Shown here in pieces: positions 1-32,870 of a stretch of DNA of 32,870 nucleotides. The notes beneath the pieces are model-generated. The model had not been told where the DNA came from and did no database searches. It was given only the letters and a program-made list of their open reading frames with translations. Source of the stretch: a virus (lineage: Duplodnaviria > Heunggongvirae > Uroviricota > Caudoviricetes); the IMG/VR virus record IMGVR_UViG_2737471818_000001, one strand, 5' to 3'. The first letter of the stretch is position 1. Each line of letters opens with the position of its first letter. A program made the translations under genes and the position numbers.

Positions 1-261
1 ATGTCTATCAGTGAAAATGATATTGCTGTTGGTGGAGTATACAAAACCCCTGGAAACCAAGAGCGCGTGGTTCTAGCAATGGAGGATGGAAAAGTTAAAT
101 ACGCTTCTCGTGGAGGAAACGTTCAGAATCAATTCGATCGCATGGATAAATGCGAACCGGCTAGATTTGCGAATGCTTGTTCTTCAAGGATTGCTGATTT
201 GCCTAAAGAAAAATTTGAAGAAATCCAAACTCTTTTTAAAAGTAGAGGATTAATTAGTTAG
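1..261 (+). CDS. hypothetical protein, 86 aa, low GC; lies outside the prophage on the ogr side
   Basis: Complete ORF in the track beginning at base 1; AT-rich codon usage unlike the phage backbone; no recognisable motif. Confidence 0.35.
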   Translation: MSISENDIAVGGVYKTPGNQERVVLAMEDGKVKYASRGGNVQNQFDRMDKCEPARFANACSSRIADLPKEKFEEIQTLFKSRGLIS

Positions 262-7244: not shown

Positions 7245-7823
7245 TTATGCGGGCAGTTCCGGCCATGTGATATCGGGGGCATCTTCGGGTTTGACTCTGT
7301 TGAGCATGACCCGATATTTTTTCCATTCATTAAGCGCGGTCGCTTCGTCTTCCGTTGCCATATCCAGATCAACGGCATCCTGCAGGGGGGCAATAGCCGA
7401 TGTTGCAATCATCAGCAGGTTTGATTTTTCCTGCGCCGCCTGCCCCTGACGAAATGTTTTTTCCGCTTCGGCATCGTGGATCCACTTAGCGCCATCCCAT
7501 TTTACATACTCCCCGTCAGGAGCAACCGACACAACGTTATCAGGCAGAGCGCCAAGTTTTTCAATAACAGCGGGCTTACCGGTGCTGATGTCATAGACGG
7601 TTGTCCCGCGGTAGTCCTCCACCCGCGACCATTTATTAGCCTGAGCATCGAAAACAGCCACAAAACCTGCCGTCACTTTTGGGGGCGCGATATCGGTACT
7701 GTAAGCAGGCAAGCCCGTATTAGCAGGGATAAACCCATCAGATTTCCCAATAAATTCATTTGTATCTGAACGAAGGTTATAAAGAATAATTGTCCGGTTT
7801 TCTCCGGTCATTTCAAAAGCCAT
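7245..7823 (-). CDS. G: Tail fiber assembly protein (Tfa), 192 aa
   Basis: Immediately downstream of tail fiber H with a 1-nt start/stop overlap; size and position of P2 gpG. Confidence 0.8.
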   Translation of the reverse strand: MAFEMTGENRTIILYNLRSDTNEFIGKSDGFIPANTGLPAYSTDIAPPKVTAGFVAVFDAQANKWSRVEDYRGTTVYDISTGKPAVIEKLGALPDNVVSVAPDGEYVKWDGAKWIHDAEAEKTFRQGQAAQEKSNLLMIATSAIAPLQDAVDLDMATEDEATALNEWKKYRVMLNRVKPEDAPDITWPELPA

Positions 7824-9658
7824 TATGCAAGCCTCACAATGTAGTTAAACGCAATATTTTTAACGGTGTTTTCTGTATTCCCGGTTGCATGAACGGTCGC
7901 TGTATGTCCGTGATACCCCATAACCACATAATGGTTATGCTCACCGATACCAACCCAGTGATCATGGGGACCAATCCACGTAACATGTGCATGATTACCA
8001 CTCCCCTCAATGCGATCCCCGGCTGACCACGAAATATTCGACGAGTGCATCCCCAGCCCTGAGCCAGGAGTATCCCGGTATGCAGACGTAGCACAATAAC
8101 GAAAGTTATGTACGTGCCATCCCCCCTCAGTGGAGGACTTATTGCCGTAGTCAAAACTGGTTGTTGGTTTTGAACCATAATCAAAAGAGTTGGTATATTT
8201 CGTTCCCAAATCGGTATCGGAAATACTGGCTGTGTGAGCGTGCGATTTAATACCGTCCTGTTCATACGAGAGTACCGCTCGTCCGTCCGGCTTGCCCTTT
8301 ATCGTCTGACCACGCATATCCGGGATAACACCAGAGGGATACGCTACAGCAAGCAATGGATATGCAGATTTATCAAATGACTGCCCCTGCATTAAGGCGT
8401 GAGCGGGTGGAACGGTATCGGATGGCCACGGAATCGGCGCACCGACAGGAAAAGCATCATCGGGTGTCCACGTCGTCCACGGCTGCGTGGAATATTTGCT
8501 CCGCGAATAGCTTCGGGAACTGCTGTACACGCGATAAACCTGCGTTATCCCTGCGCCCTTTAACACCATCAGCGAACCGGCATTATTTTCCGGGTAATGC
8601 AGCGCAGCACTGGTATTGGCATTTGCAGGCTGAAAATACAGACCCGGCGTCTGGTAATTATCCAGATTCTGGTCAGCACCAAGCTCGATGCACTGACCGT
8701 CAAAAATATCCTGTGACGTGACGCTGATATCACCGGCCAGCGAATGTCCGTTAACTTTTCGCTCAGACGGGACGCGACCATTCGCATTATCATTCACCGC
8801 CTTAACCGCTTTCGGTGTCGCGGCGAGGGTCTCAGATGTGCTGTCGGTGGCGCTGCTCAGTTTCACCAGACCTTTCTGCGCCGTGCTCGCGTCCTGAGCC
8901 GTATATTTACCATTAGCAAGGTCATACGCCGTCTTAACCGCTTTCGGCGTCGCGGCGAGCGCCTCAGACGTGCTGTCGGTGGCGCTGCTGAGCTGCACCA
9001 GACCTTTCTGCGCCGTGCTCGCGTCCTGAGCCGTATATTTACCACTGGCAAGGTCATAGGCCGCCTTAACTGCCTTTGGCGTCGCTGCGAGGCTCTCAGA
9101 CGTGCTGTCGGTTGCGCTACTGAGTTGCACAAAGCCTTTTTCTTTCAGCGTGGCGTCAGGATGATTGCGGGACCGCTCATGCTCAGCCAGTTTATCGTCG
9201 ACATAATCCTGCGTGGCCATCACCGTTGTCGCATCAATGGACAGCTCCACCGAGGCGATACTGCTGACAATAATCACCATGCGACAGGTCTGCGCACGCC
9301 CCGAGCCCTCCGCCAGCTCCGGCTTGTAGCTCTCCGCCATATTGGCAACGGCAATCAGCGTGCCTGCGTCATCATACAGACCCAGCTCACGCATCCAGAA
9401 GCCGCCCACCTCAGGAGGAATGACCAGCTCTGCCACGATATAATTTTTATTTTTGTTATCCTGGCTGATTTTATTCAGCGCATGACGCCAGACTTCATTG
9501 ATGAGCTTTACCTGCCCGACGTTCGGCTCCGGCAGTGCGCCGCCGCCATCACCGACGGCCATCGCGGTAAGGTTCACTTTTTTACCACCCGGCACCGTCG
9601 CCGCCGCCAGTTTTGCAGCTCCGGCGGTGGTAATAATTGTTTTAAATTTCGTGCTCAT
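7823..9658 (-). CDS. H: Tail fiber protein H, 611 aa, with internal tandem repeats and a His-rich C-terminal tip
   Basis: N-terminus resembles the P2 gpH baseplate-attachment region; central [19 protein letters not shown] repeats; C-terminal HxH motifs. Confidence 0.85.
8795..9139. repeat. About 2.6 tandem copies of a 132-bp (44-aa) unit inside H
   Basis: Protein repeats [44 protein letters not shown] at residues 174-217, 218-261 and a partial third copy; the DNA repeat also generates the spurious plus-strand ORF 8744-9688. Confidence 0.8.
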
Positions 9659-12429: not shown

Positions 12430-13359
12430 ATGGAAGTAACATTAAGCTTGAAAGATATTACGTCAATTATTGCAATAATCATCTCTCTTATTGCATTATA
12501 TTTTGCCGTAAGTAATTATAGGCGAAAATCCGGCACTCATATAAGAGGTCAATTTTGTATAAGTGAAAGTATAAACGCTGAAGACAAATACATCAGCAGT
12601 ATTACTTTGGAAAATTTCAAAGACAAATCCGTTATAATTTTCAAGATCTTCCTAAGAGTTGGAAGTAACTATTACATAGAGATTGATGACTTCGAGCGAG
12701 CCCCAAAAATACTAAAACCGTATGAATCCTATACTAATAACTACGACCCCGTGGATTTTTACTGTTTAAACATGAATCGTATTAATCTTAACAAACTTTT
12801 GAATTCAAAAAAAACAAAGATTAATATTGTGCTATCCACCTCTCATGGTAAGTATGTGGTAAAAGAATGGATAAATCTGTGGGATCCCATATATGATTTT
12901 TTCAAAAACCATATGACAGCTTATATCATCCCAATGACACCCATTGAAAAGGTGGGGTATTTTGGCTATAATTTCAAATACTTAGTCAAATTAAAAACTG
13001 AGGATGGATATAAAGAAACCATTCCAATTTATTCTAGTGACATTAATTACCCCAGGTTTAATAAATTTAGACTAACAGTGGAGTCACTTTCATCACGTGA
13101 AAAACTTGAAGACTTCCTAATAAATCAGATGATAATCGGAAATCTTAAATGTACTGATATTGAAGTTATCGACGCTGAACAACTAAGAAAAAGAAGTTAT
13201 CACCACGAATTTAAAGAAGAATATGAAGCAAAGCACTATAGTCTATTTTTCTATTTAGTTATTGGGAGACTATTAACCGTCTTTAGCAACATCAGGCTTC
13301 ACTTCATCAACCTCAAAAACAAAAAAAAGAGAAAACAATCCAACAATACAGACAGATAA
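12430..13359 (+). CDS. Low-GC cargo protein, 309 aa, with an N-terminal transmembrane anchor; function unknown
   Basis: ATG at 12430 preceded by AAGGAG (12411-12416); hydrophobic helix ITSIIAIIISLIALYFAV; Lys/Asn-rich; strongly AT-rich relative to flanking V and S; opposite strand to the late operons. Confidence 0.7.
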   Translation: MEVTLSLKDITSIIAIIISLIALYFAVSNYRRKSGTHIRGQFCISESINAEDKYISSITLENFKDKSVIIFKIFLRVGSNYYIEIDDFERAPKILKPYESYTNNYDPVDFYCLNMNRINLNKLLNSKKTKINIVLSTSHGKYVVKEWINLWDPIYDFFKNHMTAYIIPMTPIEKVGYFGYNFKYLVKLKTEDGYKETIPIYSSDINYPRFNKFRLTVESLSSREKLEDFLINQMIIGNLKCTDIEVIDAEQLRKRSYHHEFKEEYEAKHYSLFFYLVIGRLLTVFSNIRLHFINLKNKKKRKQSNNTDR

Positions 13360-22151: not shown

Positions 22152-23264
22152 TTAACCAACCCTTGCTTTTTTATATGGACCACAACTCCAACTAAAGAAA
22201 TTCTTACCTAACTTATACCATTTATCAGAAAGCACTGGTGTTAGGTGAGGATTATATTTTTTTAAACTTCCCTTTTGTATATATTTCAATGTATTACTGA
22301 GCAAATTCTCTCCAAAACCATCATAACTTACACAAGCAGTGTTGCAGCTACAGCGTTTTGATTCGATATACTCACAATCATATTTTATATCAAGCTTCTT
22401 TAATATCGGACGCCAATATGCACCATGTTTTCGATCGAGTTCAAGGGCTGTTTTAAAATCAAAACCTTTTTTATGGTCAATGTAAAATTTTACTGATTCA
22501 TCTACGGAGCAAAGATGCTTAAAGAAAATGAGAGATTTTTCTTTTTGTTGAAATTGACTTTGACTTCTTAATACATCTTCAATTGTCGATAAAGGAACTA
22601 GAGATTCTATTTCATGTACATCTAAAATCTCAACGAAACCTGAGCGAGTGATTTGTGAGCCCAAAAAATGTGAGCAAGTACCCCCGAATGGGGCTCTAGG
22701 ATGTTTTTTGTCATTATCCACAATACAAAAAACTATCTCATTATTTTGAATTGCACGCTCGAATACATCCTTAGTACTGCCCCCACCGCCATTTAGAGCG
22801 ATAAAACCCATTTCGCAGCGAGATAAGTTAATACCTTCGGCATAATGAGCCGCTATAACTCTAAAAAAATCAGAATCCAAAGGATTTTCACATACTATTT
22901 TCGTTTTTTGCAATTGTGCCGAGTCATTAAAATACAATGGACCACAAACAAATTTAAAAGATTCACCGTTCTGAACCCATCTAAATGATTTATCACTAAT
23001 ATTAAAGTCGACAGATACATAAAATGAGACCTGGTTCAAGATAGCATAGTACTCTGTTAGACCCGACAAAGCCTCTTGCGCGTAACTTTTTGATGAAAGG
23101 CTATAAAGCCCGCTTTGATCATTGATAATAGTTTTAAAAAAAACCCTTGCCCCTATAACCAAGTGTTTTTGTTCAGCAAATGCCCGAAGTATATTCTCAA
23201 CCGCTATGGCAAATGAATTATTTAGCACCTTCTCAGGTGTCGCATTTTCGATATGAATCAACAT
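22152..23264 (-). CDS. Cargo protein, 370 aa, uncharacterized partner of the upstream ATPase; possible nuclease-like effector
   Basis: ATG 2 nt after the ATPase stop; low GC; hydrophobic strand followed by acidic motif IVFCIVDNDKK; glycine-rich LNGGGGST; C-terminal Cys cluster CSCNTAC...WSCGP. Confidence 0.75.
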   Translation of the reverse strand: MLIHIENATPEKVLNNSFAIAVENILRAFAEQKHLVIGARVFFKTIINDQSGLYSLSSKSYAQEALSGLTEYYAILNQVSFYVSVDFNISDKSFRWVQNGESFKFVCGPLYFNDSAQLQKTKIVCENPLDSDFFRVIAAHYAEGINLSRCEMGFIALNGGGGSTKDVFERAIQNNEIVFCIVDNDKKHPRAPFGGTCSHFLGSQITRSGFVEILDVHEIESLVPLSTIEDVLRSQSQFQQKEKSLIFFKHLCSVDESVKFYIDHKKGFDFKTALELDRKHGAYWRPILKKLDIKYDCEYIESKRCSCNTACVSYDGFGENLLSNTLKYIQKGSLKKYNPHLTPVLSDKWYKLGKNFFSWSCGPYKKARVG

Positions 23265-23266
23265 AA

Positions 23267-24823
23267 CTACTTACCAGAGAAAAAGCCAACCGGCCAATTT
23301 TGTAGGAAACCATTCTCGTCAAAATAAGATTTCTTAACTATGGTCTGCTGCTTTTCATCTTTTTCAAATACCAGTATTGAAATATCATCCTGTGAAAGAT
23401 TTTCATTTTCCTCAATATATTCACCAAGTGCTTCAATCATGGTCTGGCTATGTGTCTCAAAAATTATCTTCAAATCCACATTGTTTTCTTTTGCTTTAGT
23501 TACTACTTTTGCAAAAATACTTGCTAAATTATGTTGATATGACGGATGTAAATGCAATTCTGGCTGCTCAATGATAAATGTTATAGGTTTTCTAACCGTG
23601 GTAGCACGACGTTCTGTCTCAAGCCAAATGGCTGTAACTATCGGCAAAACCTGAGAGTAACCAAACCCCATATCACTAACATTATAGTTCTCACTATTTT
23701 CACCGGTATTTATTAAAATTGCAAAGTGAGAGCCACTTTGTTCAACCTTAATAATGAAATCAAAATTTAACTTTGTCCAATCTTCAAATTTTGATTTATC
23801 AGCCGGCCTTAATGAATTCAAAAGCATTGCAAGATTGGAACCAGTATGATCTATCTCATTAACCTGTAAATCTTGAAAGCGATAAAATCTTTCTGATGTA
23901 GCACGCAGTGGAGCTATGTACTTTACATTTCTGAATGAATCTGACAAGGATGTATTTATTATATCTATAAGATTATTAATATTCCATCCAATTATAAATG
24001 GATATAACTCATTCATTATTTCATCATGTTGAAGTTCAAAGTTTCTACTAAAAACTTTTTGTTCCTTGAATAGAAAAGCAACTAATTTACTAGCGTACGC
24101 TTTGGGTATAAAGCCAATTCTTTTGAATGCCTCTGTCACTTGATTTATATCAGATTTAGTATGGAAATATTTCTTTATATATTTCGCTGCTGAATCAATA
24201 AATGACAATTCTAATGCCCTGTCATGCCTAGAATGTCTCAAATAGAATGATGTGCTTGGAGGAGGACTATCTTCCTTACCCTTCAAAATTAGATTGGGTA
24301 TGAACTGCCCAAGATTTTTAGCTATTATCCCATCACGCTCTATTGTTTTATCATCTGATTCAATGAGTAACTTAACATTACTGTTCTCATCCATTGAAAT
24401 AAATATTGTTAAATCAGCCAATATAAGCTTAATCGTTTTTGTTTTTGTTTTTTTATCTTTAGAGTAAACAGTCAACTCTGCTTCAACATCTGTTGGTTGC
24501 TTTGCTAAATCAGTAAAACGATAATATGTATATCTTTGTGAAACCTCTGGCGGAATTGAGAGTGAAAAACTGAACGTAATTTCTTTTTTTTCAGAGTTTC
24601 GGGAAAGTACATCTGTAAAATCGCCAAAATCCACATATCGCCCATACCATAGTATTGGACCAGTAGTATTTTCTTCTACAGATTGACGAAGTAAAGGAAA
24701 TGTACGCAATAGGGAACTTTTACCACTGCTGTTCTTACCAACAAATACTGTAATTGGTTTTAAATCAATAAAAGTTTTGTTGACAAAGCTCCTGAAGTTT
24801 TGAAGACCTATACCCTTAATCAT
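23267..24823 (-). CDS. Cargo OLD/ABC-type ATPase (AAA_15/AAA_21-like), about 518 aa from the ATG at 24823
   Basis: Walker A VFVGKNSSGKSSLL; Walker B/D-loop FIIEQPELHLHPSYQ; H-loop ETHSQ; long insert between them. The track ORF extends to a TTG at 24895 that overlaps the cos-like site; the GGAG-preceded ATG at 24821-24823 is the likelier start. Confidence 0.8.
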   Translation of the reverse strand: MIKGIGLQNFRSFVNKTFIDLKPITVFVGKNSSGKSSLLRTFPLLRQSVEENTTGPILWYGRYVDFGDFTDVLSRNSEKKEITFSFSLSIPPEVSQRYTYYRFTDLAKQPTDVEAELTVYSKDKKTKTKTIKLILADLTIFISMDENSNVKLLIESDDKTIERDGIIAKNLGQFIPNLILKGKEDSPPPSTSFYLRHSRHDRALELSFIDSAAKYIKKYFHTKSDINQVTEAFKRIGFIPKAYASKLVAFLFKEQKVFSRNFELQHDEIMNELYPFIIGWNINNLIDIINTSLSDSFRNVKYIAPLRATSERFYRFQDLQVNEIDHTGSNLAMLLNSLRPADKSKFEDWTKLNFDFIIKVEQSGSHFAILINTGENSENYNVSDMGFGYSQVLPIVTAIWLETERRATTVRKPITFIIEQPELHLHPSYQHNLASIFAKVVTKAKENNVDLKIIFETHSQTMIEALGEYIEENENLSQDDISILVFEKDEKQQTIVKKSYFDENGFLQNWPVGFFSGK

Positions 24824-30477: not shown

Positions 30478-30747
30478 TTAAGACCCTAAGCCCAACCACA
30501 TTAGCCACCCTTCCCTAATCGCTTTCGGACGGCTTTCATATGCAAGTTTCATTCCGTTGTTCCAGGCAGGGAGATAGACCCAATACTCTCCAGCACGGCC
30601 AGACGCTGACTGAGGATCTGTCATTTCAATTACTGGCAATTTTCCCTTATCAATCATTCCCTTTACGGCACGCTCCGATTTGCCAATCAGTCTTGCAAAC
30701 TCCTGATATGGCACTGCCTCTGTTTGTAACGCGATTTGCTTCGCCAT
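30478..30747 (-). CDS. cox: Cox (excisionase and repressor of the lysogenic promoter), 89 aa
   Basis: Close similarity to P2 Cox as recalled (...PYQEFARLIGKSERAVKGMIDKGKLPVIEMTDPQSASGRAGEYWVYLPAWNNG...). Confidence 0.9.
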   Translation of the reverse strand: MAKQIALQTEAVPYQEFARLIGKSERAVKGMIDKGKLPVIEMTDPQSASGRAGEYWVYLPAWNNGMKLAYESRPKAIREGWLMWLGLGS

Positions 30748-30866: not shown

Positions 30867-31166
30867 ATGTCAAACGCGTTAAATGAAAAACTTGTACTCA
30901 TACGCAAGTCTGAATATCTAAGCAGGCAGCAACTTGCTGATTTAACAGGAATTCCTTACGGAACCTTAAGCTATTACGAAAGTGGGCGTTCGACCCCCCC
31001 CACAGATGTGATGATGAAAATTTTGAAGATGCCTCAGTTCATGAAATACACACTTTGGTTCATGACTGACCAAATTTCTCCTGAATCCGGGCAGATTGCA
31101 CCGGCACTCGCACACTTTGGGCAAGAAACAACAAACTCGCAGCACTCAGACCAAAAGACTGGTTAA
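30867..31166 (+). CDS. C: Immunity repressor C, 99 aa
   Basis: Close similarity to P2 C as recalled (MSN...EK.VLMRKSEYLSRQQLADLTG.PYGTLSYYESGRSTPPTDVMM...). Confidence 0.9.
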   Translation: MSNALNEKLVLIRKSEYLSRQQLADLTGIPYGTLSYYESGRSTPPTDVMMKILKMPQFMKYTLWFMTDQISPESGQIAPALAHFGQETTNSQHSDQKTG

Positions 31167-31280: not shown

Positions 31281-32288
31281 ATGACAATTAAGAAGCTCGA
31301 TGATGGTCGATACGAAGTGGACGTTAGACCTGCAGGGCGCAACGGAAAGCGCATCCGCAGGAAATTTGACAAGAAAAGTGAGGCTGTAGCTTTTGAGAAA
31401 CACACTCAATACAACCATCACGATAAAGAATGGCTGGCTAAACCGACAGATAAGCGGCATCTGTCTGAGTTAACAAAAGTCTGGTGGGATCTGAAAGGTA
31501 AGCATGAAGAACACGGAAAATCCAATTTGGGTAAGATTGAAATATTTACTCGGATCACTGATGACCCTTGCGCATTCCAGATAACCAAAGCGCTTATTAG
31601 CCAGTACAGCATGACTCGCAGAGGGCAAGGCATAAAACCGGCCAGTATAAACCGCGACCTTACCTGCCTGAGTGGCATGTTTACTGCACTAATTGATGCG
31701 GAGTTGTTTTTTGGTGAACATCCTTTCAGAGGTATGAAAAAGCTCAAGGAGCAGAAACCAGAAACCGGATATCTGACGCAGGAAGAAATAACATTGTTGC
31801 TTGCCAATCTTGACGGGGACAACAAGAAAATCGCGATTCTCTGTCTAAGTACCGGCGCTCGATGGGGTGAAGCTGCGAAACTGAAAGCTGAGAACGTAAT
31901 ACAGAATCGGGTGACGTTCGTTAAAACAAAGACAAACAAACCGCGCACTGTCCCTATCTCTGAGGAAGTAGCTGTAATGATTGCGGGTAAGGGTTATCTG
32001 TTCCCTGATGCCTCATACCCGAAGTTCAGGCGAACAATGAAAGATGTAAAACCGGATCTACCGGACGGGCAAGCAACTCACGCATTGCGTCACAGTTTTG
32101 CTACCCACTTTATGATTAACGGCGGGAGTATCATCACCTTGCAGAGAATACTGGGACATTCACGAATAGAGCAGACAATGGTCTATGCGCACTTTGCCCC
32201 GGAGTATCTTCAAGATGCTGTTTCCCTCAATCCGCTACGTGGTGGTGTTGACTCCCAGAGTGTCCACATAATGTCCACGCTGGAGTGA
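31281..32288 (+). CDS. int: Tyrosine integrase, 335 aa
   Basis: Close similarity to P2 Int as recalled, including C-terminal HALRHSFATHFM...LGHSRIEQTMVYAHF; GGAGG ribosome-binding site. Confidence 0.9.
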   Translation: MTIKKLDDGRYEVDVRPAGRNGKRIRRKFDKKSEAVAFEKHTQYNHHDKEWLAKPTDKRHLSELTKVWWDLKGKHEEHGKSNLGKIEIFTRITDDPCAFQITKALISQYSMTRRGQGIKPASINRDLTCLSGMFTALIDAELFFGEHPFRGMKKLKEQKPETGYLTQEEITLLLANLDGDNKKIAILCLSTGARWGEAAKLKAENVIQNRVTFVKTKTNKPRTVPISEEVAVMIAGKGYLFPDASYPKFRRTMKDVKPDLPDGQATHALRHSFATHFMINGGSIITLQRILGHSRIEQTMVYAHFAPEYLQDAVSLNPLRGGVDSQSVHIMSTLE

Positions 32289-32370
32289 TTTGTAGTGGCT
32301 TTCAGTGGTCTTGCGTGCCGCGCAAACCCGCATTGCACCGCTGAAAGCCCCTGTTGTAGGGGTATAAAAA

Positions 32371-32394
32371 CGCCCTTACACGGGCTTATTTTTT
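32371..32394. other. Candidate attR core, P2-type
   Basis: CGCCCTTACACGGGCTTATTTTTT is the reverse complement of AAAAAATAAGCCCGTGTAAGGGCG, matching the P2 attP core as recalled over about 22 nt; lies ~85 bp downstream of int. Confidence 0.55.
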
Positions 32395-32552
32395 ATGCAT
32401 AAGCCCTATCCCTGGTCACCGTCTTCCATTGACCACATCGATAGAATCTCCCTTCATAGCACGATGCCTTTCACGTAACGGCATCGTGCTCGCACAGGTT
32501 CCGGCTAAGCACAACCAGAACGCGCATGTTTGACGCTTACCAAAAAATATTC

Positions 32553-32870
32553 TCACTCTCCACATTTGAATGTCAGACGAGCGACGCCATGTAATCCTGC
32601 ACCTTCTGTCTTCAGGTCAACTATCTGCATTTTTTTGCCCTGAGTAACACAGAAATGGGCTGCATCATTTTTTACTATATTTTCTGCACCAGATATTCTG
32701 CCCCTGGCTAAAGAAGCTTCGGCTTCGGTGTAGTATTGGTTATCGAGTTTACGCTGAATATTACTTTTATATGCAAGACCAAATTTACCGATACTTGTCT
32801 CATCATTATGCACAGCACAACCAGACATAATAAAAATACTAATTAATGATATAGCAGCTATCTTTTTCAT
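32553..32870 (-). CDS. Putative lipoprotein, 105 aa, outside the prophage on the int side
   Basis: Signal peptide with a lipobox-like ...FIMSGC; low GC; start codon at the last three bases of the window. Confidence 0.5.
   Translation of the reverse strand: MKKIAAISLISIFIMSGCAVHNDETSIGKFGLAYKSNIQRKLDNQYYTEAEASLARGRISGAENIVKNDAAHFCVTQGKKMQIVDLKTEGAGLHGVARLTFKCGE

Follow-up and report, generated by a model that had tools for sequence, protein, structure and literature searches.

The 24-mer at positions 32371-32394 of the window (the whole 32,870-nt stretch of viral DNA that was analyzed here) was found in this study to be the attL, the host-prophage junction nearest to int, of a P2-family (Peduovirus-like) prophage of 32.8 kb that appears to be complete and is inserted at the 3′ end of the E. 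coli small-RNA gene cyaR, between yegQ and yegR, a reading to which we assign a probability of about 0.93. The interpretation as a P2-type junction is supported by the empty site of a related strain, the P2-type Int, the second core found in E. coli EC11, and the match to the attP of P2. The feature is therefore of an already known kind, at a known locus and with a known mechanism, and the understanding of P2 integration is unchanged by it. What is added is a set of refinements: a boundary narrowed to 7 bp, the identity of the core with the CyaR terminator, and a phage core of the Citrobacter type. The features discussed below are as follows.

30478-30747, minus strand: cox, an 89-aa ORF (Pfam Phage_Cox PF10743, E=1.2e-41), the excision directionality factor and repressor of the lysogenic promoter in P2-type phages.
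30867-31166, plus strand: gene for a C-type immunity repressor, first gene of the C-int operon; a 99-aa ORF with the position and size of P2 gpC, annotated in EC11 as a helix-turn-helix protein.
31281-32288, plus strand: int, P2-type tyrosine integrase of 335 aa, with 85% identity to P2 Int over the full length (computed over 335-337 aa).
32254-32280: P′ arm with putative arm-type Int-binding sites; two direct repeats TGTCCAC(A/G), 11 bp apart, that overlap the 3′ end of int.
32281-32351: interval from int to the core, homologous to the Cox-binding region of P2; colinear with P2 24399-24472, an annotated Cox binding site.
32350-32394, plus strand: predicted hairpin (phage arm plus core) followed by UUAUUUUUU, a candidate intrinsic terminator of the C-int transcript; MFE -19.5 kcal/mol and z = -4.6, computed for 32346-32396, with the same fold from a longer stretch.
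32368-32394: att core, homologue of the 27-nt P2 attP core (25/27 positions) and equivalent to the 3′ end of cyaR; 22 nt of it (32373-32394) are identical to the CyaR 3′ end of the empty site.
32373-32379: CCCTTAC, the segment to which strand exchange appears to be confined and the actual phage/host boundary, from the partition of variants in two lysogens (EC11 and UTAK-6).
32380-32552: host (E. coli) intergenic DNA from the cyaR terminator to yegR; the RM11911 allele is 100% identical over 32373-32870.
32412-32441: apparently fossil P-arm-like segment in the host flank (ctGGTCACCGTCTTCCATTGACCACATCGA); 22/28 positions shared, ungapped, with the P-arm Int-binding site of P2 at 24293-24320.
32553-32870, minus strand: yegR, a host lipoprotein gene and the first chromosomal gene past the prophage; 105-aa ORF.

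Read from the window, the plus strand at 32371-32394 is cgcccttacacgggcttatttttt, the reverse complement of AAAAAATAAGCCCGTGTAAGGGCG. It occurs as a single copy when up to three mismatches are permitted, so that the window holds no second core within that limit, and it was matched in none of 100 dinucleotide-preserving shuffles of the window, indicating that the 24-mer is not a chance expectation. As a reference we used the attP annotated in the P2 genome record (AF063097, 24356-24382), the core of which reads aatctcccttacacgggcttatttttt in the orientation of the window. The first-pass annotation had put the match to this core at about 22 nt and had proposed an alignment to the P2 attP as a check. 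In that alignment 25 of the 27 positions are shared by window 32368-32394 and the annotated core, and the contiguous stretch is 22 nt long (32373-32394), in agreement with that estimate; the 24-mer taken by itself shares 23 of its 24 positions. The sequence, its single copy, and its match to the P2 core are thereby confirmed.

The neighborhood of the core is that of a P2-type attachment site. The int gene, whose product carries the Pfam domains Int_N (2.6e-24) and Phage_integrase (7.3e-21), ends 84 nt before the CCCTTAC segment, so a P2-type integrase gene adjoins the att site. The repeats at 32254-32280 align with the annotated "Int P′ arm" site of P2 (24470-24496) and agree with the published P2-type arm consensus tgTGGaCa (PMC3448106). 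Arm repeats are also present on the ogr side in EC11 (gtccacacattgaccacatcga), and at the sequence level they thus lie on both sides of the core. Judged by their sequence, the repeats at 32254-32280 would be bound by Int. The cox gene is annotated in EC11 as a "regulatory phage cox family protein," and a Cox factor and a region colinear with the Cox-binding region of P2 are accordingly both present, an assignment that holds for the region (32281-32351) as a whole and not for individual cox boxes; by analogy with P2, Cox may bind there. The same region contains an inverted repeat just past the int stop codon, with 16-nt arms AGTGGCTTTCAGTGGT (32294-32309) and ACCGCTGAAAGCCCCT (32337-32352) that are 27 nt apart; it is kept in P2 (GGGCTTTCAGTGG...CCGTTGAAAGCCC) and forms the strongest stem of the predicted RNA fold.

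The position of the boundary was resolved by an allele of the locus without a prophage. E. coli RM11911 carries yegQ, cyaR, and yegR in this order and no prophage, and its empty site is 100% identical to the window over 32373-32870, while the sequences to the left of 32373 are unrelated. Since the identity begins at 32373, the junction lies within the 24-mer, where the first-pass annotation had placed the right prophage boundary, at an att core downstream of int. Comparison with an empty site had been named beforehand as the test by which this placement could be refuted, and the placement withstood it. In the empty site, Rfam detects a full-length CyaR (RF00112) with a score of 100.7 bits that ends at the T-run. 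The core thus corresponds to the final 22 nt of this RNA, which comprise the 3′ half of the 11-bp terminator stem and the U-tail. This is matched in P2 itself, whose annotated 27-nt core is identical to the end of E. coli cyaR.

Such an overlap raises the question of whether the flagged sequence is merely the terminator of the host CyaR and no phage feature at all. Positions 32373-32394 are indeed identical to the last 22 nt of the empty-site CyaR, and bases 32380-32394 bear the host-type variants. However, at the gathering score Rfam assigned neither CyaR nor any other family to this site of the window, and a search of 32200-32600 with E values up to 10 returned no CyaR and only two chance-level matches, both elsewhere. 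Full-length CyaR/RyeE (RF00112) is thus not contained in the window, where the last 22 nt alone are present; the rest of the RNA, including the 5′ half of its stem, is found at the far junction. Moreover, the bases immediately to the left (32289-32372) belong to the phage and are homologous to the int-core interval of P2. A host-only origin of the sequence, which we regard as very improbable and as largely refuted already, captures half of the truth, because the core is at once half of the attB site and half of the CyaR terminator.

The locus is a familiar one. The site at cyaR is presumably the classical locI of P2. It has been listed as the insertion site of P2 prophages in E. coli W (Wphi2), B (P2*B), and K-12 (ogr-D′ remnant) (PMC3032704), and the GenBank record "Phage TP" represents a remnant locus of the ogr-D′ kind at cyaR. 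With window 32300-32870 as the query, 5,418 of 5,426 complete E. coli genomes gave a match, with an annotation of yegR in every E. coli match listed, and a P2-type P arm adjoins cyaR in approximately 1,197 of the 5,426.

The other end of the prophage lies outside the window and was found in E. coli EC11, which is 100% identical to the window over the part that was searched (32300-32870) and carries a whole prophage with a complete P2-like gene set between yegQ/cyaR and yegR. The second core of this prophage is situated outside the window, 401 bp past its start, and shows two mismatches to the core of the window, and the distance from one CCCTTAC to the other is 32,774 bp. The far junction contains a complete CyaR (Rfam, 100.2 bits), the 3′ end of which is CCCTTACGCAGGCTTATTTTTTGCCTG, the host version being CCCTTACACGGGCTTATTTTTTATGCA. 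The core is therefore present at both ends of the prophage, and the single copy of RM11911 joins the yegQ-cyaR side to the yegR flank. The variant bases around CCCTTAC are distributed over the two junctions as follows.

Int-side junction (window): left of CCCTTAC, phage-type acg; right, host-type ACGGG.
Ogr-side junction (EC11, outside the window): left of CCCTTAC, host-type tct; right, phage-type GCAGG.

The same partition was found in UTAK-6, an independent lysogen with a different phage allele. Because the variant bases sort cleanly on each side, strand exchange appears to be confined to CCCTTAC (32373-32379), a limit that comes from two lysogens and that could be mimicked by chance, with a probability of about 1/16, if 32380 lay inside the overlap and heteroduplex segregation had followed. 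Seven base pairs is the customary size of a tyrosine-recombinase overlap. The placement of the exact boundary within CCCTTAC, with core bases 32380-32394 derived from the host, is supported by these sequence comparisons, and the cleavage points would then fall at the edges of this segment or inside it. Fixing the right boundary of the prophage at 32373-32379 is of use for annotation and for the design of junction and excision PCRs. The term "right boundary" used in the first-pass annotation is valid in the orientation of the window but does not carry over to the nomenclature of P2, in which the side with int and the Cox site is attL. Cox acts at attL in P2 (PMC3936717), and the junction is therefore attL in P2 terms even though it lies at the right end of the window. 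Inverted core-type Int sites around CCCTTAC (ATAAAAACG and ATAAGCCCG) were also considered and were rejected, as they agree at only 6/9 positions around an 8-bp spacer and the pattern is absent from the P2 attP.

We also considered that the core might be a relic that has ceased to delimit a mobile element, in which case the prophage would be fixed or defective and the true deletion or insertion boundary would lie elsewhere. Relics do exist at this locus, since K-12 and the "Phage TP" record carry just ogr-D′ remnants there and the host flank itself contains the fossil P-arm segment. The evidence from the complete prophage nevertheless makes this explanation scarcely credible: the core stands at both junctions with an identical CCCTTAC overlap, the empty site joins exactly at the core, and the genes for int, cox, C, replication, head, tail, and lysis follow the order of P2 and are annotated as intact except for the tail fibre, whose PGAP "pseudogene" is one open 611-aa ORF in the window.

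For the prophage as a junction-bounded, P2-type element, the following mechanism can be proposed by homology with P2. The tyrosine integrase would bind the arm-type sites, namely the TGTCCAC repeats at 32254-32280 and a further set located in the P arm of the far junction, and Int together with IHF would synapse the phage core with the CyaR terminator. Strands would be exchanged across a short overlap, here apparently confined to CCCTTAC. Integration duplicates the core. At the far junction CyaR is made whole again with final bases from the phage, and the window junction consists of phage DNA through CCCTTAC, followed by the 3′ half of the host terminator, the T-run, and the yegR flank. The prophage may be competent for excision, and the excised circle would then read ...aaaaacgCCCTTACgcaggcttattttttgcctgtaatc... 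across the core. By analogy with P2, integration and excision at these sites would both depend on Int and IHF, with Cox taking part.

The first-pass annotation had also described a hairpin plus T-run coinciding with the core. Each element named in this claim is present: GCCC at 32372-32375, GGGC at 32382-32385, six T at 32389-32394, and the perfect inverted repeat GGGCTTAT/ATAAGCCC at 32382-32389 and 32399-32406. The proposed 4-bp GCCC/GGGC stem, however, is too short and is not used in the predicted fold, which relies on a longer stem between the phage arm (approximately 32350-32363) and the core (approximately 32372-32384). The GGGCTTAT/ATAAGCCC repeat was rejected as a phage feature because it consists wholly of host DNA: the empty site contains it, whereas the attP of P2 and other phage attP sequences lack it. 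The scan for consensus promoters and terminators made no call at the core. Of 12 different left-arm variants found among relatives, including that of the window, nine are predicted to form a comparable hairpin; it is missing from P2, where it is weak, and from one sub-lineage, which argues that the hairpin is not a general requirement of the system. It is plausible, from the predicted fold, that this hairpin with UUAUUUUUU serves as a terminator of the C-int transcript, though not a universal one.

The T-run and half of the hairpin have a further explanation that the first-pass annotation had not recognized: they are the orphaned 3′ half of the CyaR terminator. The native CyaR terminator has a predicted free energy of -15.9 kcal/mol, and the hybrid formed in the lysogen with the 3′ half from the phage has one of -16.2 kcal/mol. 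Since the two changes swap a G-U pair and a Watson-Crick pair, the structure of CyaR is preserved, and the lysogen keeps CyaR intact through a 3′ end that the phage supplies.

The variant bases of the far junction also point to the origin of the phage. The sequence CGCCCTTACGCAGGCTTATTTTT is contained in 17 viral contigs; two of them (L011 and L012) have phage arms on both sides and thus show an uninterrupted attP, reading CG-CCCTTAC-GCAGG. When 185,579 species were searched, each represented by a single genome, the 30-nt cyaR end with GCAGG...GCCTG turned up in 10 Citrobacter species and nowhere else, and over 27 nt the core that the phage itself carries (CCCTTACGCAGGCTTATTTTTTGCCTG) agrees with the cyaR of Citrobacter. 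The prophage is therefore a Citrobacter-type relative of P2, and its insertion in E. coli was a slightly mismatched cross-genus event; the E. coli site that was used has two mismatches, both outside the overlap. A prophage of Citrobacter youngae (L026) has a nearly identical P arm. The stretch from int to yegR (31281-32870) has its best and only near-full-length match in the phage collection in the E. coli phage vB_EcoM-720R8, and the identity of just 81.6% at the DNA level fits an origin of the Citrobacter type. In E. coli T-HYM1 (L034, 40950-40990), a prophage whose Int is identical to that of the window (WP_041327834.1) has an ogr-side core of the E. coli type (ACGGG), followed by TGCGTG and not TGCCTG. 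As the ogr-side cores of T-HYM1 and L004 differ, the core type varies among close phages, through adaptation or recombination. The finding of a Citrobacter-adapted relative of P2 in a slightly different E. coli site is of modest value beyond what was known, as is the use of a natural core mismatch to map strand exchange in this integrase family to 7 bp.

We compared the junction with known integration systems. The closest is that of P2, with which it shares the gene order C, int, core, an Int with 85% identity, the Cox family, and TGTCCAC arm repeats that overlap the end of int; the reconstructed attP is colinear with the annotated P arm, IHF site, core, Cox sites, and P′ arm. It differs from P2 in the five core bases to the left of CCCTTAC (aaacg here and aatct in P2), in the GCAGG and GCCTG of the phage core, which correspond to the cyaR of Citrobacter and not of E. 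coli, in an att region with only approximately 76% DNA identity, and in the strong predicted arm-core hairpin, which is weak in P2. Wphi2 of strain W, P2*B of strain B, and the ogr-D′ remnant of K-12 occupy the same chromosomal site, yegQ/cyaR-yegR (PMC3032704). Compared with these three, the prophage studied here comes from a more divergent lineage. Phage lambda shares the recognition of arm-type and core-type sites, the dependence on IHF, and a separate directionality factor, and the 7-bp overlap of lambda is equal to the exchange region found here. In contrast to lambda, the role of Xis is taken by Cox, which is also a repressor, only one IHF site is annotated in the P2 record, and the core sequence and the host target are unrelated. 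Other phages also integrate at the 3′ ends of stable RNA genes: phage 186 in tRNA-Ile, and Fels-2 and SopE-phi in ssrA (PMC3448106). As in these phages, the target is the terminal stem of an RNA gene and the phage copy restores the RNA (CyaR scores of 100.2 versus 100.7 bits), but the target here is an Hfq-dependent small RNA instead of a tRNA or tmRNA, and only approximately 15-22 nt are replaced.

It is worth mentioning that the host flank contains what looks like a trace of P2-type DNA. The segment at 32412-32441, which starts 17 nt past the T-run, is likely to be phage-derived: 15 nt of it (CATTGACCACATCGA) are invariant across all of the aligned phage P arms, and the segment is present in the prophage-free E. 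coli allele and absent from nine Citrobacter empty sites. The "empty" cyaR-yegR site of E. coli might thus be a fossil attR with a degenerate P-arm segment, from which the region of the IHF site has been deleted, instead of a naive attB, with a relic that is possibly functional; we consider this combined proposal rather unlikely, and any function of the relic is speculative. If it were correct, the int-side junction of every P2-type prophage at this locus would resemble a nearly complete attP, with P′ arm, core, and relic P arm and without the IHF site, and the relic could aid the site preference of P2, tandem or secondary recombination, or the behavior during excision.

Away from the junction, the prophage has three cargo slots with uncharacterized genes. 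The first, situated between ogr and the P arm, comprises an 86-aa ORF at 1-261 (plus strand), for which Pfam and PADLOC gave no match, and approximately 400 bp past the start of the window (L004 34722-35360). The ORF forms part of approximately 750 bp of extra DNA, and P2 and the related UTAK-6 and T-HYM1 prophages do not have this DNA here; the ORF is probably a cargo (moron) gene. The second is a two-gene cassette at 22152-24823 (minus strand) between the replication genes and the portal gene, a position that we take to be the old/tin slot of P2. It encodes a 518-aa AAA_15/AAA_21/DUF3696 ATPase, which matches PADLOC NsnB (5.8e-55) as well as PDC-M55A, HEC-03B, and AriA, and a 370-aa partner that had no match in Pfam or PADLOC. 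The cassette is a candidate anti-phage defense system with an uncharacterized effector. The third slot, between the virion-morphogenesis gene and the baseplate gene V, is occupied by a 309-aa ORF at 12430-13359 (plus strand), likewise with no Pfam or PADLOC match. The slot holds either a DUF262 and HEPN pair (L035) or a 398-aa hypothetical protein (L033) in related prophages, and these different occupants mark it as a variable cargo hotspot.

The RefSeq/PGAP annotation of the identical EC11 prophage divides the tail-fibre gene into two incomplete pseudogene fragments, from which a defective prophage might be suspected. This suspicion was rejected, since the gene at 7823-9658 (minus strand) of the window is one uninterrupted ORF of 611 aa. 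The pseudogene call in EC11 looks like an annotation artefact, and the ORF of the window has the same length as the intact gene of T-HYM1.
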